Shown piece after piece: positions 17,649-63,489 of a DNA stretch of 64,000 bases. The translations under genes and the position numbers were made by a program. The notes under the pieces were generated by a model. The model worked only from the letters and a program-made list of their open reading frames with translations. It did no database searches and was not told the origin of the DNA. Location of the stretch: IMG/VR virus record IMGVR_UViG_2049941000_000050; one strand, written 5' to 3'. The stretch is from an uncultured virus (IMG/VR IMGVR_UViG_2049941000_000050) (Duplodnaviria > Heunggongvirae > Uroviricota > Caudoviricetes). Within the stretch, counting starts at the first letter, position 1. The number at the start of each line of letters is the position of its first letter.

Positions 17649-17660
17649 CGGAACCCCCGG

Positions 17661-20600: not shown

Positions 20601-20843
20601 TCTTATCCCGTCGCAGGAAATCACTTTCGTGGCGGTTGCTGAAGGCGTGGAACAACTTGCGAAGAAAACGTTCTCATTGTCTATGAACGGAGTGTTCAAA
20701 TACGTATCGCCGGTTCCGAGCTTCATGCTCGTCCCGACGGGGGTTTGCACAAAAATCAGCTCGTTTGAACTTAAAGTCGGATTGACACTCTCCCAATTCG
20801 CCTCGGTGTCAGTTCTCTGGATAATCCTAGCTTTAATCGACAT
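17661..20843 (-). CDS. Tail fibre protein with Mtd_N-like N-terminus, ~1060 aa (TAGs 20585, 20150)
   Basis: RIIQRTDTEANW...MKLGTG; three ORFs join in frame; S/T-rich repeats. Confidence 0.8.
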
Positions 20844-20905
20844 GTCTTTACCTGGAAATTGACTCTCTTTTTATTTACGTGTCGAGAAGGAAAGGAACGG
20901 GAAAA

Positions 20906-20943
20906 ACAAAAAAAGAATCCTCCTTTCGGAGGATTCTTTTTCT
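20906..20943. terminator. Intrinsic terminator (bidirectional form)
   Basis: AAAAGAATCCTCC-TTTC-GGAGGATTCTTTT. Confidence 0.85.
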
Positions 20944-20987
20944 ATTGTTTAGGTTCGGAACGGGGATTATCAACTTACTTGGATATC

Positions 20988-32800: not shown

Positions 32801-32878
32801 TTTCTCTATGTTGTCCCTTATTTCGGTCTCGAACTTGTCGGACTCGGTCTCGGAAGTCTTCAGTCCCTCGCAAATCAT
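26825..32878 (-). CDS. Giant multidomain protein, ~2000 aa: PD-(D/E)xK-like, BspA/LRR_5 arrays, HIGH-type nucleotidyltransferase-like (TAGs 32122, 31504, 31156, 30274, 28495; spans N-gap)
   Basis: Six track ORFs lie in one frame separated only by TAG; xIPxxVxxIGxxAF repeats; IPGSFRPFGKHH; SDVYV...IEVK. Confidence 0.7.
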
Positions 32879-35037: not shown

Positions 35038-36338
35038 TTCTTAAGAAGGTGCATAATCTGGTTTATCTGTCCGAACTGCCCGACGATTTTGTAGCATTTG
35101 CCGGTTTTACCGATTTTAATCACGACGCCCTCACTGGGGAAGTAATTGTCCTTCCAGTCGTTCAGCTTCTTCATGTTGCGGTTGAAGAGGCGGAGCTTGT
35201 CGCTGGTCAGCTTCCCGTTGTCCCTCTCAATCTCGCTAATCACGCTCTCGAGCTCGAGAACCAGCTTTTGCGAGGTTTTTGCCGGGTCGGCGGAAAGAAA
35301 GCCCATAAGATTCCTCATAAGGAGCGTCCCCGCCTTAGAGACGAGTTGTTCGACCGGGCGCATGATTTCCTCATTCATCTGGTCCCTCCCCCCGTCCAGT
35401 GTCTCTATGACCTTCTTGTACTCCTTCGAGTGGACGTTGACCCCGGCTCGCTTCGCGAACGTACAGATGTCGGCTTTGGTCGGGCGTTTGTGGGACATGT
35501 GGTTTAGGCGGTCTGCCAGCTCGCGGACGAACGGGCAGTCCGTGTCGACGCAGATATTGTTGTGGTTGCAGACGTTGATGATGTAGCGTTTCAGACGCTG
35601 GTTCGCATAGTCCTGAATCGTTGTGTTTAGCGAAAACCCGTCCAGAATCTTGTCAAAATCCTCAAGAAGTGTATCCAGAGCCTTTTTCGCGTTGACCGAG
35701 TCTTTGATTCTGAGAAGGTTCTGTTCGGTTATCTCGAACATTTCCTGGACAAGCGCGTTGTTCCTCTTTAACGTTTCGTAAAGCCACTTCGCGGAATCGC
35801 GGTCCTCGGAAATCTTATTGAACTTCGGGTCGAATACGTCAATTCCGTTAATCTGGAGGAAACACTTGTTGCCATAGTCGAGGATGTTCTTACACGGTGG
35901 ATAGACAATCTCGATATTGGCGAAGTTCTGCCCGTTGTTGAAAACCTTGTTGAGGTCCGTTGGGTCAATGGTCTTGAGCGCGGAGCAAAAATCCCTAGCG
36001 GAGCGGGTGAAGGCGTCCCTCAGTTTGGGGTTCCCGTCGAAATGGCACCCGAGGTGCTCGAGGTTCATCGGGTTTCGGAGGCTTTCCTTGTTTCTCGCGT
36101 ACCCGAACTTCCCGTCCTTGTACGTCACCATCAGGTTCATCCCGTCGATTTTCTCTCGGAGAACAGTTTTTCCTTGGAACACGTCCTGGAAAATCTGGCG
36201 CATCTCGTTGAAGGTCATCTTCCCATCTTGATATAGGTGTTGGATGCTTCCGCCCGCGCCGCCTTCCAAAAGAAGGTCCGCATCGTTGAAAGATTCGTTA
36301 ACAATCCGGAGCAAGTCAAGTCTGTTGTCGCTGTTCAT
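35034..36338 (-). CDS. Nucleotidyltransferase/RNA-ligase-like fold protein (DUF6267-like)
   Basis: LLEGGAGG..H, EKIDG (KxDG), EGVVIK...YKIVGQF. Confidence 0.6.
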   Translation of the reverse strand: MNSDNRLDLLRIVNESFNDADLLLEGGAGGSIQHLYQDGKMTFNEMRQIFQDVFQGKTVLREKIDGMNLMVTYKDGKFGYARNKESLRNPMNLEHLGCHFDGNPKLRDAFTRSARDFCSALKTIDPTDLNKVFNNGQNFANIEIVYPPCKNILDYGNKCFLQINGIDVFDPKFNKISEDRDSAKWLYETLKRNNALVQEMFEITEQNLLRIKDSVNAKKALDTLLEDFDKILDGFSLNTTIQDYANQRLKRYIINVCNHNNICVDTDCPFVRELADRLNHMSHKRPTKADICTFAKRAGVNVHSKEYKKVIETLDGGRDQMNEEIMRPVEQLVSKAGTLLMRNLMGFLSADPAKTSQKLVLELESVISEIERDNGKLTSDKLRLFNRNMKKLNDWKDNYFPSEGVVIKIGKTGKCYKIVGQFGQINQIMHLLKK

Positions 36339-41546: not shown

Positions 41547-43498
41547 TTATCCTAAACCGAGCGGACGCTCCTCGTTTTCGCCCTCTTTGGGGGCTTCGGG
41601 GGGTTCTTCGCCGGGTTCCGGTGCCTCGGGAACCTCGGGCGGTCCCTCTTCCTCCGGAGCCGCGCCCCCTTCCCCGCCACCCTCTGTCGGCGTCTCTTCG
41701 TCGCCGGAAAGGCGAATCGGGGACTTGAAGTCGAGCGGTCTGTTCTCGTCGGAAATCCTGTCGGCATAGTAATCGGCGAGTGCGACCAGCTGTTTCTCCT
41801 TGATGAGGTTCAGGAAGTTCTGGTCGATTTGCTCGTCGGTCATCTTCAGAATCCGTTTCATCGCGTCGATTTTCGAAAGCTCGTCTTGGTCGACAACGGA
41901 CTTGTATGTATCCATCATCGCGGTTACCTTTTTCTGCGTCTGGTAGAGGTCGTAAAGAATCGGGGCGTTGAAATCGATGCTGAAGTCGGACTCCTTCATC
42001 TGATAGGTTTTCCAGAGCCCGACGAGTTTCAGATGGGTGATGAAGCTCCTCTTCAACCCCATAGCCATCTTTCTCTGGATTCGGATGACCATTCTCGCCA
42101 TCGAATATTCCTCGTAAGAGATGGTTTCGTCTCGCTCGAGTGAGTTTTCGGGTGCCTTGTACCTCGAGAACGGGACTTTAAACGCCTTGAAAAGCCCCCT
42201 CAGGAAGAACTCTATGTCCGCGATTTGCTCGTAGTCTGCCGTTGAGCCGACGGATTCTATGGTTGTGCCGTCGTTGGCGTTCGATTTCCCGAAAAAGTAT
42301 GTTTCGAGCATCGAAACCGGGTTGTAAACGCTGGTGATGTCTCTCTGCCCGTCGCCGTTGTGGTCGGTCGGCGTGACGATTCTTTTTGACTTGAGGTCAT
42401 TGGCGAAGTTTTTCAGCCTCTGGCGGGCGATTTTGTCCGAGACTCCCCCGGTGTTAATGTTGAACAGTAGCCGTTCCGGGGCTCTGGTCACGCGGAGAAT
42501 GACTGCCGCGTCTTTCATCAGGGCAAGCTGGTGGTACGGCTCGCGGCAGTTTTCCATAATCGGGTAGGTTATCAGACCGTCCTCGGAGGTCTCGCCGAAG
42601 GAAATGTAGGTTAACTGCGGCCACAGAAGCGGGATGAGGTTGTTGATGTTGAAGTCGACCATCGGCTGGGTGTTGACCATGTTGTTAAACACACACCTCG
42701 AGCCGAGACAACTGCTGGAGACGATTTGCTTGAGGTCGACGTTGAGCTGTTCCTTATTAAAGACGATTCCCATCGTCTTGATGCTGTGCCCGTTGACAAT
42801 CGTGTCGTAATACTCTGTCGGGAGATACTTAACGCCTATGATTCCGAGCTCTGGTTTATCGGGATTGATGATGTTCTCGTACGCGAGCTCCCCCTCGACA
42901 AGAAGCTTCTTCACCATCCAGAAGGAATCGTCCTTGAACTTGAACAGTTCGATAAACTTGTCGAACTGAAGCTGTAGAATGGTCCGCTTCTCGGAGTCGA
43001 GGTGTTTTTTGTTGGTCGGGATGGTGAGGCGTATGGACTGCCCGGTCTCGTCCTCGTGGAGAACGTCGTCCGCGATTTCGGACAGGCAGAAATTGCACTC
43101 GGAATACCGCGCCATTGCGCGGTACTGCCGTATTCGCTGAGGCTTGTTGGTGAAAACCGGGACGGCTTGAATCCCGTCGAAAACCGAGGTGTAATAGTCG
43201 TTGGTCTCGAAAACTTCGTCGTCCGGCTGGTATCTCGTGACGACGGACCTTCTGTCGATTATGTCTGCTATGTTGTTCTATGCGTTGGAAAACACCCTCA
43301 GATTGGGGTTCTTACGTTCGGCTTCCGCGCCGAACGGCCCGCCGTTTTCCTCATCGGGGGTACAGAGATANNNNNNNNNNNNNNNNNNNNNNNNNNNNNN
43401 NNNNNNNNNNNNNNNNNNNNNNNNNNNNNNNNNNNNCCGTGGTTAATAGACTTATTTTTATTGCTGTTCCTGTATCTTCTAAACAGAGTCTCAAACAT
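41547..43498 (-). CDS. Portal protein, T4 gp20-like (TAG 43280; spans N-gap)
   Basis: QYRAMA...EIADD, RVTRAPERLLFNI, SMLETYFF, DIEFF...VPFSR; N-terminus recovered only by read-through. Confidence 0.93.
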
Positions 43499-44870: not shown

Positions 44871-45021
44871 GTACTGAATCGGGAATCAACGCCTGCGGAG
44901 TTGAAGGCTCTGATTTTGGATGTCGAACATCCAAGATGAAACCATCGACATTGAAGCAGGAAAATCCGAGGGAAGTTCAACCACCCTCAATCTCAACGGT
45001 CTTCAGCCGTTGAGCAGTTGA
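44871..45021 (+). mobile_element. Orphan tnpB 3' end / omegaRNA (reRNA) scaffold and right end of an IS200/IS605- or IS607-type element
   Basis: AACGCCTGCGGAG...TTGAAGCAGGAAA...terminal hairpin CTCAACGG-TCTTCAG-CCGTTGAG-CAGTTGA; encodes RESTPAE, like TnpB C-termini. Confidence 0.65.
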
Positions 45022-46236
45022 AAATTTCTCCGTATTTCTCGCGGAATCCCCCGCTATGAGGAGTGAAACCAACAAATTCGCGGCGTATCCGCACAAAATC
45101 AGAACCATAACCGGGAAGAACCCGCTAAACCTGCCCAGAACGAACGTCGAGCAGAGATAGGCCATCAATGAGGCCATTCCCCACGAAGTTAAACAGAAGC
45201 CGTGCCTTTGGGACAGTGTGTCCTTACCGTACCGGCTCTCGAGGACGCTCGGGAGGACGGCGAAAGCCGCCCCGTACCCGGAGTGGACCAAAATCACGGC
45301 AATCGCGGCGGGAACCGCCATCCACCCGATTCCGAAGGAGAGGAGAATCGGTGCCATGAGAAGAATTTCGAACGCGACAATCGAAACCGTGATTTTCGAC
45401 CGGTTTTTCAGAAAATCGCTGACCGCCGGGAAAACGAGACGCCCGACGCCGTTGAAAATCCCGCACAGCATCATCACGGTTATGACCGCTTCCCCGGAAA
45501 GACCCATCTCCCTGAGAACGCTCGCACAGGAGCCGATGAGAATCAGTCCCATGGAAATGTTCAGGAACATAAAGAGCCAGGTTTTCCCGAAGAACCCGCT
45601 TTTAAGCGTGTCGATGTACGAAAACGGGCTTTTTTTCTGCCTTTTAAGCTTCAAAAGGGCGTATTTCGGCTTGTTGATGAGAAAAGCGGAAAGAAACGCC
45701 GGGACAGAATAAATCGCCGCGAGGGAATAAAACATTCCGGAAATTCCCGCCTTCGGGAAAAGGGTTCCAAAAAGCCACGAGCAGACGGCGGAGCCGAGAC
45801 CGAAGGTGAAAATCGAAATCGCGGAGAGAATCCCCTTATGTTTGGTGGCCGGGAACCAGAGAATCATGTTCTTGTTCGGGGTGACGTATCCGCACCCCTC
45901 CGCGGTTCCGGCGAAAAACCCGCACCCAAGGTACATCAACCAAATGTTTTTCAGCTGGCAGGCGAGACCGCCGAGAGCCAGACCGACAACAAGAAGCGTC
46001 GCGGAAACGGTCGCCGCAAGCCCGATTCTCTTTTCGACGAGCGGACCGAAGGTGGCCGCGCCCATCCCGAGGAAGAATATGTTCAGGCAGAACGTGAACT
46101 GGGCGGATTTTACCGAACAGCCGATTGCCTCGGCGATATGCGGCGTAAAAAGACTCCACGCATAGCAGAACCCGATGCAAAGGGTTAAAAGAACGCAGGG
46201 GATTACGGATTTCGAAAGCTTGTACAGAAGTTTCAT
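44977..46236 (-). CDS. MFS transporter, oxalate/formate antiporter (OFA) family
   Basis: ~12 hydrophobic segments; CIGFCYAWSLF, GCGYVTP...WFP...KG, FNGVGRL...SD, YGAAFAVLP. Confidence 0.88.
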   Translation of the reverse strand: MKLLYKLSKSVIPCVLLTLCIGFCYAWSLFTPHIAEAIGCSVKSAQFTFCLNIFFLGMGAATFGPLVEKRIGLAATVSATLLVVGLALGGLACQLKNIWLMYLGCGFFAGTAEGCGYVTPNKNMILWFPATKHKGILSAISIFTFGLGSAVCSWLFGTLFPKAGISGMFYSLAAIYSVPAFLSAFLINKPKYALLKLKRQKKSPFSYIDTLKSGFFGKTWLFMFLNISMGLILIGSCASVLREMGLSGEAVITVMMLCGIFNGVGRLVFPAVSDFLKNRSKITVSIVAFEILLMAPILLSFGIGWMAVPAAIAVILVHSGYGAAFAVLPSVLESRYGKDTLSQRHGFCLTSWGMASLMAYLCSTFVLGRFSGFFPVMVLILCGYAANLLVSLLIAGDSARNTEKFSTAQRLKTVEIEGG

Positions 46237-46288: not shown

Positions 46289-46879
46289 TTAACCCTTTTT
46301 AAATATTTCATCGTACTTTTCTTTTATGAATTCTTTAACAATGAATAGAAGACAATATCGCCGGTGTTGCTCGTTGAGATAAAACGGGACTGTCATCAAC
46401 GTATTTTTCAATTGGGAACCGAGCTCTTTTTCCTTCCATATATTCCAGACAAATCTCCCCCCGTAATAAACCCCGACCGCGCCGGGAAGCGGGGATTGCA
46501 ACGGCTTTCCAATTTCTACCGGAATGTCCACGGAAATTCTACCCAAAAAGAAATCGTCGGTTTCAACCACAAATCTGGTCTCTACGCTCTTTTCCTTGAT
46601 TTCGGAAATCAATTCCGAAATCTCGCCCACGTTGGTTATCTCCCAAGTGTTAAAAAACACGGATTTTTCGTTTTTAAACACGTACTTTTCTTTGGAACGG
46701 TCATACTCAAACACCCGCACCCTGGGAAAATACTCAGACTCCGTGGATTGGAAAAATTCCTCAATCCTCTCTTTTGCCGCCTCCAGAGAGTGTGTCATAA
46801 AGATGGTTTCGTCCCAATGGGCGCAATGCGGGTCATCCTCGTTCTCAGAGACGACGGAATAAAGGGTGGGTTTGTCCAT
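46289..46879 (-). CDS. Hypothetical protein
   Basis: ATG 46879 five nt after GTATAATAT; the upstream part of the track ORF is a polB shadow. Confidence 0.65.
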   Translation of the reverse strand: MDKPTLYSVVSENEDDPHCAHWDETIFMTHSLEAAKERIEEFFQSTESEYFPRVRVFEYDRSKEKYVFKNEKSVFFNTWEITNVGEISELISEIKEKSVETRFVVETDDFFLGRISVDIPVEIGKPLQSPLPGAVGVYYGGRFVWNIWKEKELGSQLKNTLMTVPFYLNEQHRRYCLLFIVKEFIKEKYDEIFKKG

Positions 46880-46896
46880 AAAGAATATTATACTTT

Positions 46897-48210
46897 TCAC
46901 AAATCGTCGATTTCCATCATGTTCATGTTTCTCGGGTCGAAATTCGGGAAACCGGTCGCGACGAGAAAGTTCCTCAGCGTGTTGATGATGAGCTTTTCCC
47001 ACATAACGTCGTAGTCGATTTGAAAAATTTCCCCGAACTCCTTCGGGTACTGGTCCGGCTTGTACGCGAGAACGTTTATCGCGAACTTGTTCGACGGCTT
47101 GACGTACAGGAACCTCACCTTGTCCCCGACCAGAATGTGGTCGTACAGTTTCCCGAGCCCCATCTTGTCGATAATCTGGTTGTAGAACGTGCAAGCCTTG
47201 GCGATGCCCGTTGTTCCCTTCATCATTTCCAGAAATCCGGTGGACTCCCTCTCGGTGCCGTACCCCTTCCAGAAAGCTATCTCGTCCACACCGAGCCTTA
47301 TGAACTTTTCGTACGCGGCGGACAGGTATTTCCTGAAATCGTCGGATTTCCACCTCTTCGTCAGAACGCCGCCGTAAATGTCGCCGAGAATCTCCTTAAC
47401 CATCGGCGGAACGTTCCCCTTCTTGAGCTCGATTCCGGAATACTTGATTTTGTCCACCACCTCCGGACCCTCGGAAACGATTTTCCTGACCCCGTAGTGC
47501 TTCTTCGACTCGTAGATTCCCGTGTCGGCTATGTATTCCAGCGAATACCTCAGCACCCCCGGGTTTTCCGAGCGGTACTTTTCCTTGACAAGGTTCTGGA
47601 CATAGGGGTTCAGGTCGTTCTCGACAAAATCCTCGACGTATTTCCACAGCTTCAGCTTCCACTCGTCGGACCAGTCGATTAGGTTTTCCGGGAGGTTGTT
47701 CTGACGCCTGAAAAAGTCGGTTATGCAACGGATGGAAATGAACTGCGAGTTGTGGACGAGGATGTTGTCCGCGTAAAAGCAGTGCCCGTCGTCGTCGACC
47801 TCGATGTCGTAGACCCACTCCTCGGTTTTCCCGGTGTCATCGATTTTCGAAATTTCCCCGACCAGCTCGGAATCCGACTTTCTGTCGTAGACGGAGACAA
47901 GGTCCCCGACGCGGAGCTCTTTGGCGGCCTTGTTTTCGAAAAAGTGGTCCGTGTTGTAAACCATGCAGACGTGGTCGGTCGTTACGGTTACGGAATCCTC
48001 GCCCCTTTCCGAGGAAACGGTCACCCTAATCATGTTTTTCACGGTCTTGTGCCTCGAGACGTAGATTATCCTCGAGAAACCGTTTCCGAGCGTCCTGGTT
48101 TCCACGTCGCCGCAGTAAATCAGCTCGTAGCCGTTCATCTTTATGACTTTTCTCCCCTCGTCGAGTAGGGACTGGTAAAAATCTTCCAGCGAGACGTCTT
48201 TTTCTTCCAT
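46897..48210 (-). CDS. DNA polymerase B C-terminal half preceded by 154-aa C-intein (48210..47749)
   Basis: Intein blocks TTDH, WVYDIEV, NILVHN|S; then KKHYG...KYSGIELKK polB motifs. Confidence 0.92.
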   Translation of the reverse strand: MEEKDVSLEDFYQSLLDEGRKVIKMNGYELIYCGDVETRTLGNGFSRIIYVSRHKTVKNMIRVTVSSERGEDSVTVTTDHVCMVYNTDHFFENKAAKELRVGDLVSVYDRKSDSELVGEISKIDDTGKTEEWVYDIEVDDDGHCFYADNILVHNSQFISIRCITDFFRRQNNLPENLIDWSDEWKLKLWKYVEDFVENDLNPYVQNLVKEKYRSENPGVLRYSLEYIADTGIYESKKHYGVRKIVSEGPEVVDKIKYSGIELKKGNVPPMVKEILGDIYGGVLTKRWKSDDFRKYLSAAYEKFIRLGVDEIAFWKGYGTERESTGFLEMMKGTTGIAKACTFYNQIIDKMGLGKLYDHILVGDKVRFLYVKPSNKFAINVLAYKPDQYPKEFGEIFQIDYDVMWEKLIINTLRNFLVATGFPNFDPRNMNMMEIDDL

Positions 48211-48219
48211 GATAATATT

Positions 48220-49506
48220 TTATGATTTCAGAAAATCAAGGCATTCGGAAATAACCCGCTTCGGGTCTTTATAAAAATCACCTTCCCACACTATCTTAAC
48301 CTTATAACCGGCTTTCTCGATTGCCTCGATACGTTTTCGGTTTTTCTCCCATATAAGTTTCGCCGGTCTCGTCAGAATGATATCGTCCTCCCGGTACCTC
48401 TTAGGGTTGGCGTGATAAAAATCCCCGTAAAATTCTATAACCTTATCAAAAAGGGTATAATCCAGGCTAACCAGCTTATGTTCCCCGCCGATTTCCAAAT
48501 TCAACGAGAGTTCTCCGTTGTTCTTATCTCCGTATCTTGAATTTATCCTGGAAATTTCATACATTTCGTCCAATGTGTAAAAAAGCTCCACACTGACCCC
48601 GGAATAATTGTTGTTCTTTTTTGTAACGTAAGAAATCCACTTCAACGCCCCTTCGTTTTCCCCGTACTTCTTTATGAAATTGTCGTATGTGATTCTTTTG
48701 TCTTTGCAGACTCGCCTGTACTCCTCTAAACCTTTCTCTTTCCCGTATTTTTCGACGAAATACTCAAGTTTGCAACCAGCATACGCCTGTCTTTCACAAT
48801 AATCCTCCCACATTTTGGTTCCGACCTCGGTCCCGTGCCTCAAAATAAGATTTTCTTTTGTCACGGCTCGGCTTTGGTTGAATTTATTCCATTCTTCCTC
48901 GGTCATTCCCTTCTCACCCATCATATACTCTTTAGAACAGGTGTATGCCTGCCTTTTCGTGTATTCTTCGTATTTTTTCCTTCCCTCCACTTCTCCGTGA
49001 CGCTTTATGAAGGATTCTAGTGACGCGGTATCGAATTTTCTATGTTCAACCTCAAGCTCTTCGTCGGTTATGTCAAACAAAAGCTTGAAATATTTCGACG
49101 GCGACGTCCAAGCCGCCGGTGGGCGAAAAATCCCGCTCTTAACGTCCTTATACCACGATGATTTTAACGCTCTCTTTGAAATATTTTCAATCTCTGGGAG
49201 GTGTTTAAAAAAGCAGTCCCAGCACACCTTTCTGAAAAACGTCTTTCCGGACAGTTCCCGCCCCCTGACAAGCCATCTGTTGTGTTCGTTTTCGACATAT
49301 TGTCGATAAACGCCATTCTTCACAACAACAAGTTTCAAAATGCTCCTTGTAGCATCTGGTTTGTATCTCACATCAACAATATCGTTGACATCCACCATAA
49401 ATTTTCCGCACTCCCTGCAATAGAAATCGTTGATTTTCAAACCGTTATCTTTCCAATAATCAACCAACGTCCAGCCGTTAATTTTCTCAATTTCTTTGAA
49501 TGTCAT
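48220..49506 (-). CDS. Free-standing putative homing endonuclease (Vsr/DUF559-like C-terminus)
   Basis: LDY...VIEFYGDFYHANP...R...GYKVKIVWE; CxxC pairs; four (K/R)(H/Y)GxxxG repeats; AT-rich. Confidence 0.8.
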   Translation of the reverse strand: MTFKEIEKINGWTLVDYWKDNGLKINDFYCRECGKFMVDVNDIVDVRYKPDATRSILKLVVVKNGVYRQYVENEHNRWLVRGRELSGKTFFRKVCWDCFFKHLPEIENISKRALKSSWYKDVKSGIFRPPAAWTSPSKYFKLLFDITDEELEVEHRKFDTASLESFIKRHGEVEGRKKYEEYTKRQAYTCSKEYMMGEKGMTEEEWNKFNQSRAVTKENLILRHGTEVGTKMWEDYCERQAYAGCKLEYFVEKYGKEKGLEEYRRVCKDKRITYDNFIKKYGENEGALKWISYVTKKNNNYSGVSVELFYTLDEMYEISRINSRYGDKNNGELSLNLEIGGEHKLVSLDYTLFDKVIEFYGDFYHANPKRYREDDIILTRPAKLIWEKNRKRIEAIEKAGYKVKIVWEGDFYKDPKRVISECLDFLKS

Positions 49507-49579
49507 GGATTTCCTTTAATGGTTATGATTCATATTATATTTACTTTTTAGTGGGGACACAGCTTTTTAAGAAAAGAAA

Positions 49580-51676
49580 TCAGCTTTTTGTGCATATTTT
49601 TAGCTAGGATGGGCATTTTCTCACACAAATACTTGTATGGGGGGACGCCGTGTCCGTATCGCCTGAAATTAAATATAATAATTTTTTACTATCCCCCAAA
49701 ACGTCTATCAAATTCGGCGGCGGCGGGAGCGCGAACTCGCTCCCGAATTTTTTGTTGAAAACTTCCGCGACGTGCAACGCCGCGTTTATGTTGCAGAATT
49801 TTCCCGTTCTCGTGATTGTCTGTGCCATGTACAGATTGTAAATCGGCGAAAAAGCCGTACCGATTATACCGTAAATCGAGTTAATCATGATTTTGAGAGC
49901 CTGCTGTCTCGAATCGAGGTACTGTATCAGCTCCTCGGTTTTCGGGATTTCGCTTTCCGGGACCTCTTTCCTGTGGAGCGACATTTTCAGCCTCCCCATT
50001 TCCTTCTTGGTCGCCTTTCTGAGGTTGAAAAAGTGGGTGCACCACTCCGCGACGACGCCCTTCCGGACGCTGTGCTTGAGGAAGAGCGTGTTGTTTCTCG
50101 TGAAGATGCACTTTTCTCTCAAAAGCCCGTCGAGCTTCTCCCTCGAGACGGTTTTCTGCTCGCCGCTGGCTGAAAGAAGGTAAAACCTTTCTATGCCGGT
50201 TTCCGTCTCGAGGTCTATGGGGGGCTCGGTTTTGAACGCCTCCATGTTTTCCCCTATCGGGTTCCTGGAGATTTTACCGACGTACGTTTCCGGAGAAATG
50301 TTCGCGGCGCGGATTGACGACGGGTAGAGGGAGTTGTAGTCGACCACCGCTATCCCGTCGCGGTATACTGAGGGAACCGGCTCGAAAACGAACGCGCCCT
50401 CGAATTTCTCGTTGCTGTCCTTCCTCGACTTGTAGGAGGTGAAGACGGCTTTCCCCATGTTGGTCCTCGCGAAGGTGACCAGCGAGCCGACCAGGTAGCC
50501 GATTGAGGAGTATATGGAGTTGTAGTCGCTCAGACCGCTCGAGGTTATGGTCCGGGAAAGCTGTATCAGGCGGCATTTCTCCTCGATTCTGCGGAGGAGG
50601 TCCACGTCTCGGACGTTGTACTCGTAAAACTTCTGGAAATCGTTCTCGTAGAGCGTCTTGAGGTTTCCCTCGTACGCGACTTTCCTTCCGAGACCCTCGG
50701 CTTCGCCGACGTTGGAGAGACCGTATCCGCCGTCGAGGGGGTTCTTGATTTTGAACTTGTCGCGGTAGAGGACGAGCGCGTCGGCGAGGAATATTCCGGA
50801 TATTTCCGCGAGGATTTCCGCCTGTTTGTTGGCGCGTTGGTTCTCGGTGTTGTTCTCGCGCACGGAGACCCTCCCGACCGGGGACAGGCGTTTCGTGGTC
50901 TCAGAGAGACGCCCCGTTCCGACGTTGTCCGGGTTGCCGAGGACGCGCTCGACGCGGTTTACGATGTAGGGGATATCGTAGGACTGCGAGTTCCATCCGC
51001 AAATCACGTCCGGCGGGTTGTTTTCCATCCACCGCACGAAATTGAGGAGCATCGAACGCTCGTCGCCGCGGAATTTCCTGATTTCGAACAAATCCCCGGG
51101 CATTTCGGTCATCGGGCTCTCGGAGAACTCGCTACTGCACTCGCCGGTGGTCCAGGTGTGGTACTTTTTCGTGACCGAGTCGTGGACCGTAATCATGTTT
51201 ATGGGGTTTCTGGCGGTTTTCGGGGGCTCGAACTGCGCGGTCATCACTGTCTCGATATCGATGTACTGTATTCTGAGCGGCTGTGTGTTGAAATTTTTGT
51301 CGAGCGCGACGGAGTCGAACATTTTGTGGAGAAACTCGCTCTCGGGTCGGAGGCACTCGACTATGTTCAGCGAGCCGTTGCATGCGTCGACGTACGAGGA
51401 GCGGGCTTTGGCGTTCTTGAACGTCCTGGTGTCGACGTACCGACCGTAAATGTCCCTTTCCGCGGTTTTCCTTCTGACCGCGTGCTTAATCCACGACCTG
51501 TGGGGGCAAATGAAGGTTGCCGGGTTCCCGGCTGGGTCGTAGCCGAGAAGGATTATCCTCCCGTTTCTGTCCGCGTCGGTCGTGTAGTGGCAGGAACGGT
51601 AGCCGTTCCCAATGTAATCCTTCCATTTCTCGAAGGGGATATCGGTCAAATCGACCGCTGTGTCGAAAATGCTCAT
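49580..51676 (-). CDS. DNA polymerase B N-terminal half ending in short N-intein (from 49651; ends TAG 49604 or TGA 49580)
   Basis: DIET, GWNSQSYD, YNVRD, DYNSLYPS, KIMINSIYG, SGDTD|TASPHTSICVRK. Confidence 0.93.
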
Positions 51677-51696
51677 GGCTTTGGCATATTATACAA

Positions 51697-51725
51697 AAAA
51701 AACCGGGCTGAAAACAGCCCGGTTT
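51697..51725 (-). terminator. Intrinsic terminator
   Basis: AAACCGGGCTG-AAAA-CAGCCCGGTTT with A-run on plus strand. Confidence 0.8.
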
Positions 51726-53151
51726 AATTCTTTCTTTTTTTTTNNNNNNNNNNNNNNNNNNNNNNNNNNNNNNNNNNNNNNNNNNNNNNNNNNNNNNNNN
51801 NNNNNNNNNNNNNNGTTCCGCGCTTGGCGACCCTCACGGTGTGGTCGCCCGCCCTGTAGTTTCCGTAAACCTTCTCGGTGTCGTAGACGTAATACTCAAT
51901 CCAGAAACTGGCGACAATCCAGCGGTATTGGGTGTCGAAAAACGCCTTTCCCGCAATCTCGCCGAACGGGGTCGAATCTTTCGGGCGTTGGCCGCGGCGA
52001 TACATCTCGGTTTTCCAGACACCCCACCAGTAAACCGGAAGGGCGTAGCCCTTAATCTGGGACAAACCCTTCTTGAGGGGCTTGTTGGAGGCGGTTACGC
52101 CGCCTTTCCCGCTGAGTTTGGTGTTTTTGGGCGGTCTCGACTCCAGCAACGCGCCGTACGGCATTTCCACGAGTTTGTCCGACGAAAGCTCCAGCTTCTC
52201 GACGTTCGGATTCCCGTCCTTGTCCAGAATCGGATTCCCGTCCTTGTCGACTTCGGTGACCTCGATTCCGATGTTCTTTGAGAGCTCGGAAATCCGCTTC
52301 ACGCGGTCCTCGACGAACTTTTTCCCGGCTTCCATCGAGCCGACGTTCTCCTCCGTGTAAATGGTCATGAACTTGAACAGCTTGTCGACCTCGGTCCTCG
52401 GTTTGCGGACGATGCGGAAATACTTCGTTTCGCTTCCGAACTTCAGAGTCACAAACTTTTCGAGCTTTCCGGAAAACTCCTTGCTCGGGGTCCACTTGGA
52501 ATCGTCCCAAAAGCCGCCGTTCTCTTTCATGTCCGCCTTTTCGCCGACGAAAACGAAGGTCTTCGTCTTGTTTTCCTTTTCCGCCTCCCGGGCGTTGCCC
52601 TCCATCTGGGACATAATTGCGTCGTAAAGGTCTTCGAGCTCGTCTTTGGTTACGGTGTTGTTCTCTTTGGGGGTGTTGTCTGTGTTGATTACCTCCCCCG
52701 TGGCGGGGGTGTCTTCTGCGGAACCCGTGTCGGAAGTTTCGTCGTCGTCACCGTAGTCTTCTTCATTCTCGTCGCCGCCTTTAACCAGACCCTGGCGGAG
52801 TTTCGTGATTTTGTCCGGGGAGGTGTGGAAACCGTAGGTGTATTTCCCCTCGAAGAAACTCCCGTCCTCCTCCGGCGCGAACGCGATTTCGTTAATCTGC
52901 TTGCGGATGTCTTTGTAAATCTTCGGGAACTTGTTGAACAGCCCATAATACTCGTCCTCGGTCATCGCATCCGACGGAATCTCGTCGAGACCGGCTCTCT
53001 TGCAAATCCTGATGATGTCGACGTATCTCGGCTTTCCCTCCTCGGCTTCGTCTCCGTCCTGAATCGTGTAACCGTCGTCGTCGACGGTCTAGCTTTCTTC
53101 CTCGGTAATGACCCGGGCCATCTTTTTGATGAAATCGTCGATAGTTTCCAT
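51724..53151 (-). CDS. Hypothetical probable head protein (TAG 53091; 3' end uncertain, N-gap)
   Basis: METIDDFIKKMARVITEEES-*-TVDD joins 51724..52965; GTAAATA upstream. Confidence 0.7.
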
Positions 53152-53876: not shown

Positions 53877-54449
53877 TTAATCAATTTCCACTTTGCAGAC
53901 GACCATGTCGTACTTGTAAATGAAAACGTGCTCCGTTCCGACGGTGAAGGAATCCCCTCCCTTGGAAATCATGACGTAATCCCCGACCTTGAAAGGGACC
54001 TCGATTCCCGGGTCGACGTTCATCGAGACGACCTTCCCGATGTTCAGCTGTTTCTTGTAGTTTGATACGAGGATGCCGTCCACGTCCGTGACGAATTCTG
54101 GGTTGTCTTGTACAAAAACCCGGTTCCTGAGCGGGGAAAACTTCTTGTTTTCGGAATCGGTCCTGGCTATGATGTTAGTATACTTCATGACCGCTACAGG
54201 GCTAGTCTTGTAACACTGCGCCAGCCTGTCCGCAACGACGTAGTCGCCCTCCTTCAGACCGTATTCCTCCGCGGCCTTGTTTCCCACCGCCGTGACCTTG
54301 TAAAATCCGAGCCTTTCGTTTCCGTAAGAACTGGTCGGGACAAGAATCCCGTCCACCTCGAAATCGTCGTGCCGGTCGAGAACCTCGAGAACGACGTATT
54401 CCGGTGCCGGGACACATTTTTTGTTGAAATTGATAGTGTCGTTTAGCAT
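53877..54449 (-). CDS. Tandem two-domain GroES-like protein
   Basis: P.PEYVVL...DGILVP...VTAVG...LKEGDYVV and PLRNRVFV...DGILV...GKVVS...FKVGDYVM. Confidence 0.75.
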   Translation of the reverse strand: MLNDTINFNKKCVPAPEYVVLEVLDRHDDFEVDGILVPTSSYGNERLGFYKVTAVGNKAAEEYGLKEGDYVVADRLAQCYKTSPVAVMKYTNIIARTDSENKKFSPLRNRVFVQDNPEFVTDVDGILVSNYKKQLNIGKVVSMNVDPGIEVPFKVGDYVMISKGGDSFTVGTEHVFIYKYDMVVCKVEID

Positions 54450-56615: not shown

Positions 56616-57971
56616 TTATCTCATTATTTTCGCGCCGCACTTGGTTTCAAAGATGAGTTTTTTCGCCTCTTCCTCTGCGGCGGCTCTCTTGTGGTCGAAA
56701 TAAAGCTTCATCGAGCATATCGGTGCCTTCTGGCGGAGCCTGAACATGTCCACCCAGATGTTCAGGTTGTCCTCGAGCCACCCGTTCTTAATCTTGAAGT
56801 CCCCGTCCGGCATCGGCGAGTTCAGCCATCGCCAGTTTTCCTCGATTACCTTCTGATATGCCCCACTTGATGAGAATTTCAGGCTCATCAGCTTCGCCTT
56901 CAGCTCATCCTTGTCGTCAAAAAGGTGCTCTTTTCGCATAACCCCCGAATACGGAAGCATGTTTGACGCGAAAAGGGGTATACCGGAGGCGCAACACTCG
57001 AGATACTTGATGTGCGACTTACACTTGTTGAACTCCATGTCCTTAATCGGCGCGACGATTGCCTGGAGCTGGAGGTTTTCCATCTTAGATGGGTAGTTAA
57101 GAATCGGGACGCCGTCGTGAAACTCGATTTTCTTCGCCTGTATGAGGTCTTTCAGCTTGGGCGGGGCGTAGCCGAAGAATACCCACTGGAAATCGTTGAC
57201 CGTTTCCCTAATTATGTCGATTATAAGGTCCATGTCGTCGGTTATGACCTCGGTTTCCTTAAAATCGACCACTTTGCCGTCTTGGTTTATCCAGACCTCT
57301 TCCCCGGTTTTCCCGTCTTTCTGCTTCCGGCAGGCTTTTCCTTCCCTGTCGACCCTCATACCGTCGACGTTGTAGTGCGAAAGGGAGGAGACGATGCCGA
57401 TTCTCGGTCTTGCCTTGAACTTTTGGAACTGCTTGACCTTTCTTTCGGGGTCGAAACGGTCCCCGAACCACCACCTGGGGAGAAGGTTCGGAACCGCGAC
57501 GATGTTTTCCAGCGGCACGCCGTATTTCTCGTGGTAGTACTTCTTGATGTAGTTCGTCGTGACGACAACCAGGTCCGAAACGTTCAGCATGTACCTGATG
57601 TTCTCCTGAATCTTGTCGCTCGCGAAAGCCTGCCTCCCCTTATTGAAAAGCGGGATTTCGTCGTAATGCATCGCGTCGTCGATGGCGTAAATCAGCCACC
57701 CACGGTTCTAATCCATGACCGGCTTCAGAAGGTGCCTGACCAAATCGGCGTGTTGGTCGCCAATCCACCTCTGGATTGTCACGGAGTTCATCCCGGTGTA
57801 GTATTTCGGGTCGATGACCGGCACCTGGGTGTAGGTGTTGAGAATTCCGAGCCCCTGGGCTATACAGTTTACCTGCGTAATCTGCTAAATGTGCCTCCAG
57901 AACCCGGTCCCGGAAACGTCCGCGCAGTAGACGATGTTCCTGAACTGCTGTTGCTGTTGCTGTTGTTGCAT
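56616..57971 (-). CDS. GT-B glycosyltransferase (TAGs 57887, 57710), poly-Gln N-terminus
   Basis: D.SGTGFWR, QRW, IYAIDD, VVVTT, VPNLLP, IVAPIKDMEFNKCKSHIKYLE; first 100 aa need read-through. Confidence 0.8.
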
Positions 57972-58080
57972 TAAAATATTTTCCTATAGGAAAACACGCG
58001 TAAATCTTCCGTTTTAAAGGTAAAAACAGATAAATCGCGTGTTTTGGAAATATTATACAAAAAAAAAAACGTATAATATG

Positions 58081-58374
58081 TTAATTTTGTTCTGAATATG
58101 TTGCCTGACAGGTCACGTCGGATGAAATGATTTCGGGAAGACCTTGCCACCCCTCGAAAACGTAACCCTCGTGGGGGGAAACGAAACCCGTTCCGACGTC
58201 GGAGTTGTCTATCCCGTACGTGCAGGTCAAGTTGGAAAGAACATCTCCCCCGAAAATATCGGAATCGAAGAAAGTCACAGAGTATCTCTCCCCCCAGACC
58301 TGTTTTTCGCCGATTTCGATTTTAAGGACGCGCTTGTCCCCGACGCTGAAAGACTTTACATCAGAGAAATCCAT
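58081..58374 (-). CDS. Small protein with Flg_new/InlB-B-like repeat
   Basis: YSVTFFD...EGYVFEGW...DVTCQATY. Confidence 0.65.
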   Translation of the reverse strand: MDFSDVKSFSVGDKRVLKIEIGEKQVWGERYSVTFFDSDIFGGDVLSNLTCTYGIDNSDVGTGFVSPHEGYVFEGWQGLPEIISSDVTCQATYSEQN

Positions 58375-58379
58375 TTAAA

Positions 58380-59723
58380 TTACTCCGAATTGGTGTAGAC
58401 CGCAGACAAATTGGTGTTATCCAGAACCGTTAATGTCCTTGTGGTGGCGGTCAGCGTGGTATTATCTGCCCAGTGAATAAACGTTTTGTTTGGTAACTCC
58501 GGAGCGGAAATCTGCACGCTTTCGCCGTAGAAATAAGTATCGCTCGAGAGGAGAGTCCCGTCATCCTGGAAAATTCTCAGCTAAAACTGTTCGTTCAACG
58601 CAACGACACGCTTGGTTATCGTTTCTGGCTCGTCGTTTTCATTAAGAACGGTGAAAGTCCACGTCTCAATGTTGTTGGGGTTGATGGAAACCGTAAAAGT
58701 ATTTCCATTTTTCTCGGATTTTACCGCCAGATACCCGGAAACCTGCGGAAGCGGGTTTCCCTGCACGACCAATCCTTCGTTGTTAACATAAACCGGGGTG
58801 TTTTCGTTCCCGACAAACTGACCATCGTGACGATAGACCTTGTTTGACCTCGTCAGACCGGAATTTATCGCTTCCCACTGTTCGGAATTTAAATCCGCAC
58901 TCTCAATTTTATGATGGACTTTCCAATAATTGAGATGATATTCAGTTTCATCACCGTTTTCGGGAATAACATAACTTACCACCCACTATCCGCCATCGGA
59001 CAACTCGGGAATACTAGGGTCGGGAATAGTGGAACCGTCGAAAATCACAACATAATCGTTCTGGTCGGGATGTTCATCTGATATTTGGGATGCGGTAAGA
59101 CCGTGCCAGGTTTCAAAACTGCCGAGGAACCTCACGTCGCGCTTTTTAACTTCCGCCTGGACATATCCGACATTGGCGAGAGTATCCGACAATCCCATGT
59201 TTTCCTCGGTCGGGTAGGTTTCCTAAAGTTTCTAGAAGAAATCGTTGCAGAGTGACCGCACGGTCAGGTTGTCAGCGGACAAATCTAGTACGGAGATTTT
59301 CTCGGAGTATAACGCGGAGAGTGTGATGTCCGGAGTAATCCGTTTCAGTGCGTCCGAAAGGGCGTAGGCGTCGGCGGAAACCGGTTTTCCCATCTCGAAC
59401 GTCATTGAGCTGATTATGTAGGGGGGGGTAGTAGACGCCTGTACGGATGTACTGGGAAGTTCTTCCTTTCTAACGTAATCGCTCAGATTCTCAACCTTTG
59501 AGGAAATATTTTCCAGCCCAACTTTTCCAACTATGTCCGCCACCAGGTCGCCGTACTGGCAGAATTTGGACATGAAACCGGTTCTGGTCGAAATCTATTC
59601 GTTTTTCTGGGAAACCAGAAACAGGTCTTCGTCTTTAAGCTCAACGGTTTTATCTTCCAACTCGGAAACCGCGACACAGCTGAGCTTGTCCATTTCCGAC
59701 GAGATGACGGTGTAAACGTTCAT
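58380..59723 (-). CDS. Tail/baseplate-type structural protein, 447 aa (TAGs 59597, 59234, 59225, 58988, 58583)
   Basis: Three track ORFs plus flanks form one frame ending at TAA 58382. Confidence 0.7.
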
Positions 59724-59739
59724 TGGTAAAGTCTCCGGT

Positions 59740-60663
59740 TCAGTCGTTTCTCAGAACGTACCCGACGAACGAGCACGGCTAGTTTTGGATAAATGTCAGC
59801 GTATTATACGCCGGGTTCTGGAAACCTGAGTTCATCGTGTTCACGGGGAACCCGGTCATTATTTTCAACTGCATATTCTTCTTTACCGGGACGTTGAAGC
59901 CGACGTACTGGAGAGCCTGGCTCTTCTGCCCGATAATCCAGGGCTGGATTTGGAGGGCGACCCAACGCTTCCTCTGGGACTGGATGTCCCCGATGGTGAC
60001 GTATCCGAAAAGACCAACCCAGGCTTCCTGCGCGGCGACGTTCCCGTTGTCCGCCAGCCAGCCGTATACCACAAGGTTGCCGGTGTGCTTCGCGAACACG
60101 GGTCCGGCTTTCTGGTTGCTGTACTGGTCCAGTATAAACTGGGAAGAATCCCTTCCGTCCTGGTCGAACCTCCACACCATGAAATTTTCCTCGTCGAAAA
60201 CCGTGTTCGGAGTGGAGTTTTCGGGGTCCGTGTCAACGTATGTGGTGCTCGGCGAGAGGAAATTGCCGTAGTCCTGTGAAGTCTCCGACGCCATTTCTCT
60301 CGTGATGAAATCGTTGTCGTCGATGTCCGCCAGTTTAAGCGTTTCCGCGTACCCGACCGGATTTCTGAAAAGCTTTTTCCCGGAAATGGAGACGTTTTCG
60401 CCGGAGAGGACGGAATCCACATCCTTCTTAACCTTTCTGAGGCTAATCGGAGGACCGTTGTCGTCCCCCTCGTTCATTTCGAAGGTCTGCTCGATTTCGG
60501 ACGAGATGGAGCCGGTCGAGCTCTCTTTTATTTTTCGGAAATCGACAGCGCGACTATCATATTTTCCGTCCGCAGTGGGGACTTCCACCTCGAACAGGCA
60601 GTTGTCTGTCAGCCTATCTTCTTCCCCGAGCCTTGGTAACTGTGAAACCGTTTGTACTATCAT
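59740..60663 (-). CDS. Tail/baseplate-type structural protein (TAG 59781)
   Basis: N-terminal TVSQLP..D.LF motif shared with neighbours; ends at TGA 59742. Confidence 0.65.
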
Positions 60664-60669
60664 ATCTCA

Positions 60670-63456
60670 TTAACACTGATAACCAATAGAGAACATAACT
60701 ATCCTATCATCGTCAAAAACATTCGCGGAAGCCGTGCCTGTTTGAGAGAACGGGTTGTAAACATAATAATTATTTTCCAACGATTGGGTGTTTTCGTCTT
60801 TTAACGGTCCGTCCGCACCAAGTAAAAAGAACCGCCTCCCGAGAGACTAAGAAGCGTTGGTAACCCCAATCGAACCGGTGGTTTGGTTGTTCTTGAGTAT
60901 CGCGTTGACACAACCACTGATTTCGGCGGCAACTTTACTTTTATCAACCGAACCGTCGGTGAGATAAGCAGAGACGTTGCCGCTCAGCCTAACCGCCAAG
61001 AAATAATCCTTGTCCCCGTCGGGGCTATATTTCAACTTATAAGCGTAAGTTGAACCCGTCTTGGAATTCGCCTTAAACCTGGGGGCACTCAGAAACGCGT
61101 CGACCGCGATTTCGGTTATGGAGGAATCCAGCGTAACGCTCTTAAGGCTTTGACAATTGAAGAACGTCCTACTTCCGAGAGAAGTTAACGTGGGCGGCAA
61201 CTCCACCCCGGATAATTCCCGACATTCAAAGAATGTATAATCGGTCTTATCGGCGTCGGTGGACTCTATGTTTGCGCTCTTGAGATTCCTACACTGACAG
61301 AACGTGGAAAGAAGACCGCCGTTTTCGATGTGATTGTTGTTGAATGTCACGCTTGTCAATTGCGGAAGCATGTTTCTTGACGCCGCGCTGATATTTCTGG
61401 TACCGGTTGTGTTATTAGCCGAAAGGTACATTTCGGTTCCGAAAGTTGTTAAAGCCGGGTTGGAAACCGCCTCGTTCATGAAGAACGTGCAATTTCCGTT
61501 CATTGAAACGCACGACGGAATACTCATGGACGACAAACTTACGCAATATGCGAACGCGGAGTCGTCGATAGTTACCTGGTATTCACTGTCGGACGTTAAT
61601 ATTGCTCCCGACACGGAAAAAGCCGATGTGTTGGCGTCATAGCTGGTCTTTTGTGTAGCGAAAGTCACCCCGGTCAGTGTACACCCGATGTCGGCGTTTG
61701 TCACTCCGTTGGAAAACGCGGCGTTGCTTCCCTTTTTATTGTTTCCGAGGCTTGTTACATTAAAGGGGAAACACCGTATTCTGGTAACGTGTTTTGGTTC
61801 CACCCTATATTCGAAGTTCACACACCCGATTTTATCATCTTCGATTCCACCGTCGCCGTTAAAACTGTTCATGTCCGTTAAAATGGCGGACAAATCGGTT
61901 GTGTTCTTGACAAAATGCATCATCATGTCACAATCGTCTGATTCGGGGCCGATGGAACGCTGGACTTTACCAGAACCGTGGTCTTTCTCATACACGAAGT
62001 TGGGTTTATCGGAGGCCACACCCAAAAACGCCATCTGTTTCCTGGATTTTCCGTAATCAGACGCACTGACCGCGAAATTCCCGCTGGTAACGTTGTAGAC
62101 GGTGCTTCCTATATTCACGGTTTTACCGATTCCGGAAGGTCTGCCGAGATATTTTCCGTACCCAAACCGGTGGTATGTGGTGCTTGTTAAATCGAACCTA
62201 TTATCGAAAATAGCATCGGAACTGACCAGTGGGTTGAGAACCGTTTCCTCGTCAATGATTTCGTTCAATCCCGCTACTTCCGAAGAAATGTCGGAAAGCG
62301 ACGTGAATTTCAGCAAAGAGAAGTTTCTGTTCCCGGAACCGTCATTTGTTGCGCCGTATTTGTCGTTAAACACCGAATCCGAGGAAATAAAAACGCAACT
62401 TATCTGGTCACTGGTAATCGTGGTATCTTTATTGACATAATAATACCTATCATTAAAATTGTCCGCGAGAACCGTGGGTTTTGTGGAAGTCTAGTTGAAC
62501 GGGACCGTTTTGTATGAGTTTCCGAGTGGGAACGTCACGTCACCCTTGGTTTTCCCGACAACAAAAACATCACCAGATTGCCACGGCTTTGTGGGAACCA
62601 GTTTGTCGGCGTTGACGAAACGACCGCTGGTATTGATAAAACCGCGTTTCGTGATGGGTTTCTCATCGGAGACGTTTCTCTTGTCGATAGAGGCACGCCA
62701 CTCGAAAGATTCTGTTCCGAGGGGCTTGTCGTTCATCGTCATAACGATGGAATTCGTACATCTATTGGAGAAATTGTTGCTTCCGTTGTTACTACAGAAA
62801 TTGGAAGAGATATACGAGCTGTTTCCGCACTTTTCCAGCAACAGCCTTATTTGCGAACCGGCATAGAAAAACCCATGGAAATCCAAATCAAAAATAGAAC
62901 TCCTGAGCGGTTCTTGACAGATGCTCTACCACCCATTTTCGGTAAGAACCTGGAGAGAGGCTATATCTTTGTAATTTACACCGCTGTTACTGGAATAATT
63001 AGCAAGGCTCAAACAGTTAAACGTGATATGGATATACGCGTTGGCGTCGGATTTGAAAGTATAAATTTCCGATTCCGCGTTCCCGTTAGTAGCACTAATC
63101 ATCGATGTAAAAGACGACGAAAGCGAGTACACCTTTCCAGAGAACACGTTCTACTGGGTCATCTTTATGTTGTTGATTGATTCGTCTATACTTTCCATAA
63201 ACTCTTCGCCGTCCCCTAAGTTCTGAATGTTGATGTTTGTGAGCTGGTTCTTCAGTATGTCGTTAACGATATACTGCCTTATCGTTTCGAGAGTTATGCC
63301 CCTCGCATACGACAACGCCTGTTGGGTCAAATCGTTGTTGTTTGTCTCGTGTGAAACAACAAACACATCACTACCCTTTACGGTAGTATCGTCTCTTCCG
63401 GTGTCCAGATTTAACTTGGTCAGGTCGTCTATGGTCTTTACTTTGATGTTTGACAT
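60670..63456 (-). CDS. ~928-aa structural protein with BspA/LRR_5 repeats (TAGs 63153, 62928, 62493, 60849)
   Basis: Four ORFs join in frame; TFFECRELSGVELPPTLTSLGSRTFFNC; GTAAATA upstream. Confidence 0.75.
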
Positions 63457-63489
63457 TTGGATTTACCTTACGAGAATTATTTACGTCTG

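Follow-up and report, generated by a model that had tools for sequence, protein, structure and literature searches.

A natural threonine at position 1 of a PolB16-type split intein in the DNA polymerase of a gut phage that reads TAG as sense

Atypically split inteins, in which a short N-fragment pairs with a long C-fragment, are known from phages, and AceL-TerL, GOS-TerL and VidaL, all of phage origin and located in other host genes than the one considered here, use Cys at position 1 or +1. The stretch analyzed in this work, a 64,000-nucleotide record of an uncultured virus of the Caudoviricetes (IMG/VR IMGVR_UViG_2049941000_000050; hereafter the window, meaning the whole stretch), carries a family B DNA polymerase gene interrupted by such an intein, the first residue of which is encoded as Thr. 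The closest described relative is PolB16 OarG, found in a sheep gut metagenome in a PolB-type polymerase, with an N-fragment (IntN) of 15 aa, a C-fragment (IntC) of 168 aa, and Ser at both position 1 and position +1 (Pasch et al. 2023, Chem Sci, PMC10189870; PDB 8CPN/8CPO). In that report an NX motif (Arg/Lys-His) was presented as new and specific to Ser1 inteins, its His being critical and proposed as a residue that may polarise the Ser1 hydroxyl, and the substitutions S1A, T106A, D164N, H182Q, and N183Q impaired splicing. Because S1A abolished it altogether, a nucleophile at residue 1 is needed in this family (PMC10189870). Thr at that position "has not been observed" in nature, according to a paper in which the Tli pol-2 intein was nevertheless reported to splice with its Ser1 changed to Thr (S1T; PMC2807308, 2010), and residue 1 is given as Cys or Ser in later accounts (PMC7664689, 2020; PMC10663303, 2023). 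Two figure legends name "Ser1, Thr1 or Cys1" as the class 1 requirement, without an example. We found no natural Thr1 intein in the literature searched, a scope outside which most subscription journals fall, and the supplement of the PolB16 paper (PMC10189870) contains neither "Thr1" nor "threonine". The expectation of the initial annotation of this DNA, made from the letters alone, that a natural Thr1 intein would be rare thus agrees with the three reviews, which in their available parts name Cys or Ser only (PMC2807308, PMC7664689, PMC10663303). The novelty is confined to natural variants with Thr1 (and Cys1) and to their coexistence, as polymorphisms, with Ser1, the intein family itself being known. 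Our overall explanation, which we hold to be probably correct, is that the window encodes a PolB16-family split intein inserted in motif C of a gut-phage polymerase, with a fractured-gene layout and with trans-splicing driven by Thr1.

The polymerase is encoded in two pieces on the minus strand of the window, to which all coordinates of the locus refer (Table 1). The N piece, an open reading frame (ORF) of 690 aa (49604..51676), matches the Pfam families DNA_pol_B (E 3.3e-29) and DNA_pol_B_exo1, the exonuclease domain (E 1.1e-18), as well as PHROG 262, DNA polymerase (E 2.8e-108), and its C-terminus consists of GDTD, then TASPHTSICVRKCPS, then TAG. The C piece, a downstream ORF of 437 aa (46897..48210), is made of IntC followed by the C-extein. 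Residues 6-154 of IntC correspond to positions 10-155 of the 155 in the Pfam profile Intein_splicing, a match (E 2.8e-7, 30.9 bits) that lies under the curated 35.8, and its motifs are NX R53-H54 (His codon 48051-48049), N3 T77/H80, C2 D135, and C1 H153-N154. Since the C piece lacks only about the first nine positions of the intein profile, the 15 residues that follow GDTD on the N piece supply them; a PDB sequence search with the 40 C-terminal residues of the N piece returned no match. The junction is fixed by intein-less alleles, full-length homologues that run directly from GDTD into SQF[VI]N (the intein-less-or-partial class makes up 30 of the 120 N-piece homologues listed), so that the Thr is residue 1 of the intein and not part of the extein, and the Ser is +1. 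Were the Thr assigned to the extein, splicing would insert an extra residue inside the catalytic motif C. That the N-intein begins with Thr, as first read from the letters, is therefore upheld by both the codon (ACG, 49651-49649) and the junction.

Table 1. Features of the split polymerase locus in the window, with GC content at third codon positions (GC3)
Feature	Coordinates	Strand	Basis	GC3
N-extein, family B DNA polymerase residues 1-675, ending in motif C (...LISGDTD)	49652..51676	-	Pfam + PHROG	0.78
Last 12 codons of the N-extein				0.25
N-intein (IntN), 15 codons, TASPHTSICVRKCPS	49607..49651	-	family profile fit + contig support	0.47
TAG (49606-49604), 7-codon in-frame extension, and TGA (49582-49580)	49580..49606	-		
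Putative homing endonuclease gene, free-standing, 428 aa, between the intein halves	48220..49506	-	PHROG 22677	0.51
C-intein (IntC), 154 residues, ending in ...ILVHN	47749..48210	-	Pfam Intein_splicing + PDB 8cpn_A	0.77
C-extein, Ser+1 (47748-47746) and rest of polymerase (SQFISIRC...), stop codon included	46897..47748	-	PHROG 262 + 1918 DNA polymerase	0.785
Compositionally foreign cassette: last 12 N-extein codons, IntN, spacer, and endonuclease gene	48220..49687	-	GC3	

There is little doubt in our view that the element belongs to the PolB16 type, the atypically split, cysteine-less class 1 inteins, an already published family with a solved structure. IntC matches the PDB sequence 8cpn_A, "PolB16 intein", with E 2.5e-43 over residues 1-158, leaving a 15-residue gap before motif N3, and the PolB16 type locus, located by the GenBank coordinates in the supplement of PMC10189870, is one of our homologue loci (L115), its IntN being that of the N-piece homologue P0076. 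The insertion point, SGDTD/T...HN/SQF, matches the published N-extein SGDTD. As in PolB16 OarG, the host gene is a PolB-type polymerase interrupted at SGDTD/S, the IntN has 15 residues, Ser+1, the NX R-H, the Thr and His of N3, the Asp of C2, and the His-Asn of C1 are in place, and the source is likewise labelled ruminant gut metagenome (PMC10189870). The very short IntN and long IntC (about 150-170 aa) that characterize the family are found here as 15 (23) and 154 aa, and there is no Cys at 1 or +1, the latter position (Ser/Thr in the family) being occupied by the invariant S155. The Ser expected at position 1 is absent, its place being taken by Thr, which is still a hydroxyl nucleophile. Unlike PolB16 OarG, then, the window has Thr1, an IntC of 154 and not 168 residues, an IntN otherwise unrelated beyond the conserved T6, I8, V10 pattern, and an IntN that ends at TAG in a phage reading TAG as sense.

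The catalytic residues were compared among 77 aligned C pieces, the window included, which are the matches with E 2.4e-45 or better minus the truncated P0186 and P0190, with the weak P0200-P0204 left out. Residues S52, H54, T56, K58, T77, T78, D79, H80, D135, H153, N154, and S155 are invariant (77/77), and R53, the partner of H54 in the NX motif, is conserved in at least 90%. The window has every catalytic residue of the PolB16 family except Ser1. The Ser-type class 1 character noticed in the initial annotation is accordingly confirmed, with the NX "RH", the block F Asp (D135), and Ser+1 present and WCT absent. Two other classes were considered and ruled out: class 3, as block B (TTDHVCMV) has no Trp, position 4 of block F is Asp, and residue 1 is Thr; and class 2 (Ala1), as residue 1 is Thr and none of 96 relatives has a non-nucleophile there. 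One homologue, P0002 (1130 aa, 69% identity in the searched region), carries the same intein as a contiguous mini-intein of ~173 residues without endonuclease, and its loop PNIHKNNH sits at the break point of the split forms.

That the Thr codon is genuine we take as virtually certain. Contigs from public sequencing runs were compared with the window over 46800-51700, and ACG is shown, with no differences along the compared segment, by a contig with a depth of 80 that possibly comes from the source sample (X1, 46800-51594), by a contig with a depth of 11 from a run of the same sample as X1 (X3, 46800-49709), and by a 190-nt contig from an independent study (X6, 49619-49808). Another contig, from a third study (X5, 49639-49907), has two differences, of which one was located (49724), and was counted neither for nor against ACG. 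The idea, raised at the outset, that ACG might be a Ser codon misread in sequencing or assembly draws on the single base that separates ACG from TCG, and the relative L114 does encode Ser1 by TCG; nevertheless, the agreement of these three contigs and the occurrence of Thr1 in a further seven distinct IntN sequences, drawn from other assemblies, reduce its probability to a negligible level, and the idea did not hold.

Thr1 is not unique to the window. Among the best 120 of 164 N-piece homologues at E <= 0.001, 88 have a short tail after GDTD, beginning with Ser in 81, with Thr in 7, and with Cys in none. Extra members of the seven Thr1 clusters add 12 short tails in the 15 examined (Ser 8, Thr 3, Cys 1; the other three are without the motif), and 50%-identity representatives, with 147 new ids, add 10, all of them Ser. 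Over all sets, 96 distinct IntN were collected, and residue 1, whose identity in homologous inteins had been singled out in the initial annotation as a check on the Thr, is Ser in 87, Thr in 8, and Cys in one of them. Lengths range from 11 to 37 aa with a mode of 12. Position 1 is the sole position restricted to nucleophiles, positions 2-5 are hypervariable, and conservation is found at positions 6 (T 68, S 13), 8 (I/L/V, 96/96), and 10 (I/V/L, 95/96), a family pattern that the IntN of the window fits with T6, I8, and V10. In five distinct paired contigs Ser1 is encoded by AGT, AGC, AGT, TCG, and AGC. Asn, Gly, Arg, Ile, and Ala, although just as near to Ser codons by mutation, never occur at position 1 (0/96). 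The one-step neighbours of the five codons above include Asn, Gly, Arg, Ile, Cys, and Thr, and that only Thr (8) and Cys (1) of these turn up is what one would expect of a position at which Thr functions and the others fail.

The two hydroxyl residues are also closely intermingled, both being found in turn among polymerases clustered at 90% identity or more. In one such N-piece cluster SFFYSTKIYIKR and TFFYSTKIRIKR co-occur, S1 and T1 forms that otherwise differ little, and P0218, from the cluster of P0042 (again 90% identity or more), has an IntN that begins with Cys (CWDKSSRIWIKL), alongside cluster mates with Ser1 and with Thr1. A FastTree tree was built from the extein columns of 100 N pieces (Ser1 in 90, Thr1 in nine, Cys1 in one), and it requires residue 1 to have changed at least nine times. 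An association between T1 and F2 (6/8 vs 13/87, Fisher p 0.0007) was set aside as evidence, because the rows are not independent and ancestry may be shared.

Given the recurrence of Thr1, the restriction of position 1 to Ser, Thr, and Cys, and the intact state of the other catalytic residues, Thr1 is most likely an active nucleophile, and these comparisons make it likely that the intein splices. In the course that we propose, the N piece of the polymerase would carry the 15-residue IntN, or one of 23 residues if TAG is read through, and this fragment would dock onto the 154-residue IntC as the first beta-strands of the HINT fold. The Thr1 hydroxyl would then make the N-to-O acyl shift at Asp-1/Thr1, with the NX histidine, the N3 threonine, and the C2 aspartate as helpers, the acyl group would pass to Ser+1, and cyclisation of Asn154 would leave the polymerase rejoined as ...GDTDSQF... 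The Tli pol-2 S1T mutant offers a parallel, as a polymerase intein of the Ser1 type that can splice with Thr in the first position (PMC2807308); it is, however, an engineered mutant of a contiguous archaeal intein, whereas the Thr1 of the window is natural and lies on a short split fragment.

Several points weigh against a Thr1 that splices. Splicing may be slow, Thr being a hindered secondary alcohol, and the viability of the phage is not proven by metagenomic ORFs. Paired loci of the other Thr1 alleles were not found among 183 loci from IMG/VR and Joint Genome Institute (JGI) metagenome contigs; the short-IntN arrangement with the end of the N piece is present in seven of these (five distinct contigs), all with Ser1. 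Six of the eight Thr1 fragments begin with TF, and some may share one (cassette) origin. The IntN cassette, moreover, is foreign to the phage in its composition, as set out below, and may have been carried in recently by a selfish endonuclease and not yet have faced selection. It could also be that Thr1 is not the nucleophile at all and that Ser+1 attacks the N-terminal junction directly, in a class 2-like manner. Class 2 inteins exist (PMC2807308, PMC5222942) and Thr is a poorer nucleophile than Ser, but the loss of PolB16 splicing in S1A indicates that the family depends on residue 1 (PMC10189870), none of the 96 fragments begins with Ala or another non-nucleophile, and the NX histidine is kept, all of which makes direct attack by Ser+1 highly improbable.

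The composition of the locus bears on both the origin and the activity of the Thr1 allele. GC3 falls in the last 12 codons of the N-extein, in IntN, and in the endonuclease gene (Table 1), and the spacer between the latter two has 28% GC, whereas IntC is compositionally at home in the phage. The cassette between 49687 and 48220 looks recently imported from a lower-GC donor, and endonuclease-driven homing with co-conversion of the flank is the route we infer. Such an import explains the variation of IntN among near-identical polymerases, the presence of a TAG stop in a recoded phage and, through the AT-rich spacer, the TGA eight codons on. It also means that IntN and IntC need not have co-evolved, which cuts both ways for Thr1 activity. 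Three pairs of homologues (P0038/P0044, P0039/P0049, and P0041/P0045) have identical extein columns and quite different IntN (16 vs 11 residues); to judge from such pairs, IntN is exchanged between identical host genes, probably along with the endonuclease gene. A further member of the N-piece 90% cluster, P0206 (841 aa, on a 4728-nt contig), joins residues 1-663 of the polymerase to residues 13-190 of the GroES-like ORF at 53880-54449. Its junction falls exactly at the start of the low-GC cassette (49688), with the partner point at 54414, ~4.7 kb away, and no long repeat accounting for it was found at the junction, which may be circular or tandem, or an assembly artefact.

The same exchange of cassettes could have carried in, with the selfish endonuclease, a Thr1 allele that is splicing-impaired or dead. 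The polymerase, if working, would in that case act as two pieces that the intein halves keep together non-covalently, or else the phage would be defective. The foreign composition of the IntN cassette (GC3 0.25-0.51 vs 0.77-0.785) is in keeping with this, as is the swapping of IntN between identical exteins (P0038, P0044), since drive could outrun selection, and split phage polymerases without splicing have been described (Petrov/Karam gp43, in PMC2677866). However, position 1 is only Ser, Thr, or Cys in the 96 distinct fragments, with no other one-step neighbours of Ser, which is unlike decay, and the catalytic residues of IntC are all invariant. The exact match of the second-study contig X6, among runs dated 2011 to 2025, also speaks against an impaired allele, as does the fact that an unspliced intein of ~170 residues would sit inside the catalytic motif C. 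We consider an impaired allele unlikely, though by no means negligible, and retain splicing through Thr1 as the preferred reading. A broader version of the latter would have the nucleophile of the family naturally polymorphic (Ser, Thr, and once Cys) on short IntN cassettes that are interchangeable, travelling with the endonuclease and combining with resident IntC halves, with Thr1 fully competent and, in TAG-recoded phages, a change of IntN length from early to late that alters polymerase maturation; to this whole combination we give only a small chance.

The initial annotation had further pointed out that the length of IntN depends on the reading of TAG, with 15 residues if it is a stop and 23 if it is read as Q, and this dependence is real, TAG being sense in other genes of the phage. 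With TAG as sense, the greedy ORF set of the window goes from 62 to 47 and the mean length from 309 to 429 aa, compared with means of 373 and 379 aa if TGA or TAA, respectively, is taken as sense instead. One minus-strand frame with leucine-rich-repeat-like PHROG matches (35892, 18805) is open for 2018 codons (26825-32878; 2017 residues, 26828-32878), broken only by five TAGs. The tail-fibre-like ORF 17664-20870 has two in-frame TAGs, each within a domain repeated inside the ORF whose copies align across the codon; in 16215-17660, TAG occupies the same motif position in two repeat copies; and paralogous alignments bridge 6 of the 26 in-frame TAGs counted in seven read-through ORFs. Besides, an annotated tail protein of the Oscillospiraceae phage NatCom_27610 (PV036438.1) aligns unbroken across TAG-96. 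The read-through regions are 16215-22694, 26825-35040, and 56619-63462 (-). In tail-fibre-like genes, and in other large ones too, this phage accordingly translates TAG as an amino acid; the 64-kb window contains no tRNA gene.

The polymerase lies in a block (35034-55690) whose genes have no internal TAGs, and of the 13 minus-strand ORFs of this block 12 end in TAA or TGA, the N piece of the polymerase alone ending in TAG. A TAG-free replication block fits the published pattern of TAG-recoded gut phages, in which TAGs are concentrated in structural genes while replication genes keep the standard code, and for which an early standard-code and late recoded model has been put forward (Borges et al., 10.1101/2021.08.26.457843; PMC9523058). 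A point of difference within the 64 kb covered is the absence of a suppressor tRNA. On such a model the TAG at codon 16 of IntN could be a regulatory device, giving a 15-residue IntN early and a 23-residue one late, with different rates that time the maturation of the polymerase. The reading of TAG as sense, seen in the paralogous alignments across 6 of 26 TAGs and in the tail protein of another phage that aligns across one, and the early standard and late recoded model in print (10.1101/2021.08.26.457843) make two products plausible. But natural IntN tails are 11-37 residues long with no conserved tail, a range that includes both 15 and 23, so that eight extra residues probably matter little; the codon lies inside the foreign cassette and none of the other 12 genes of the block terminates in TAG, so that it looks like an inherited stop; and a TGA eight codons on is expected by chance in a spacer of 28% GC and is no evidence of design. 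A regulatory role of this TAG is thus quite improbable, and the suggestion that the code switch tunes splicing was not sustained. The duality of 15 and 23 residues is real as a coding fact and most likely has no function, and the TAG is probably a terminator inherited with the imported cassette, leaky once the phage turns TAG to sense.

The order of the genes, with the N piece and IntN, an endonuclease gene, and IntC with the C piece on one strand, is that of the fractured genes (Dassa et al. 2009, NAR, PMC2677866), in which the endonuclease is of the GIY-YIG or Vsr-like family; the leads for the endonuclease of the window point toward the Vsr/DUF559-like type, below curated thresholds. Differences were also found: the break is near the N-terminus of the intein and not at the canonical endonuclease insertion site, and the RNA hairpin reported in PMC2677866 is absent upstream of the endonuclease of the window, where the segment 49495-49615 folds at -8.1 kcal/mol (z 0.85, with 159/200 shuffles folding as well). 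The endonuclease ORF matches PHROG 22677, of unknown function, with E 5.8e-52, and its residues 385-424 give a weak, below-cut-off match to the Pfam family REase_MTES_1575 (PF18741; E 0.0032). No match was obtained against PDB sequences, and the atlas leads were clusters named "DNA mismatch endonuclease family", DUF559, and NUMOD3, with scores of 0.89-0.95. A Vsr-like assignment, being under curated thresholds, is a lead. Related ORFs stand between split PolB halves in eight other loci (L002, L003, L004, L007, L016, and L020-L022), and in all of these save L002 the C pieces begin to match that of the window at about residue 122 and no earlier, a hint of a short IntC some 35 residues long. In the window, 9 bases separate the stop of the endonuclease gene from the start of the IntC gene (48211-48222), an A/T-rich leader with no Shine-Dalgarno-like sequence.

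The interest of Thr1 lies in its occurrence, at about 8% of the distinct N-fragments, in a family that has a crystal structure and a working assay, with Ser, Thr, and Cys versions of IntN adjoining near-identical polymerases. An IntN of 12-15 residues is easily synthesised, and the selection of the nucleophile at position 1, a question raised in PMC10189870, becomes directly testable. A Thr1 split intein, if it does work, would be an additional cysteine-free ligation tool. The locus also illustrates the joint movement of IntN and the endonuclease cassette, and how a stop codon brought in by such a cassette can turn ambiguous in a recoded phage.

Some neighbouring features may be mentioned. Directly downstream of the C piece of the polymerase, 44977-46236 (-) encodes a multi-pass, transporter-like membrane protein of 419 residues with a higher GC (0.55-0.60) and a weak match to PHROG 2034 (E 1.2e-7), which may be an auxiliary gene. 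The ORF at 53877-54449 (-) has 190 residues, with a match to phage GroES co-chaperonins (PHROG 3188, E 1.1e-7) in its C-terminal half. Finally, the window contains four runs of N, of 58-78 bases (2452-2529, 29598-29655, 43371-43436, and 51744-51814), the last of which is just upstream of the start of the polymerase, inside the ORF 51724-52965.

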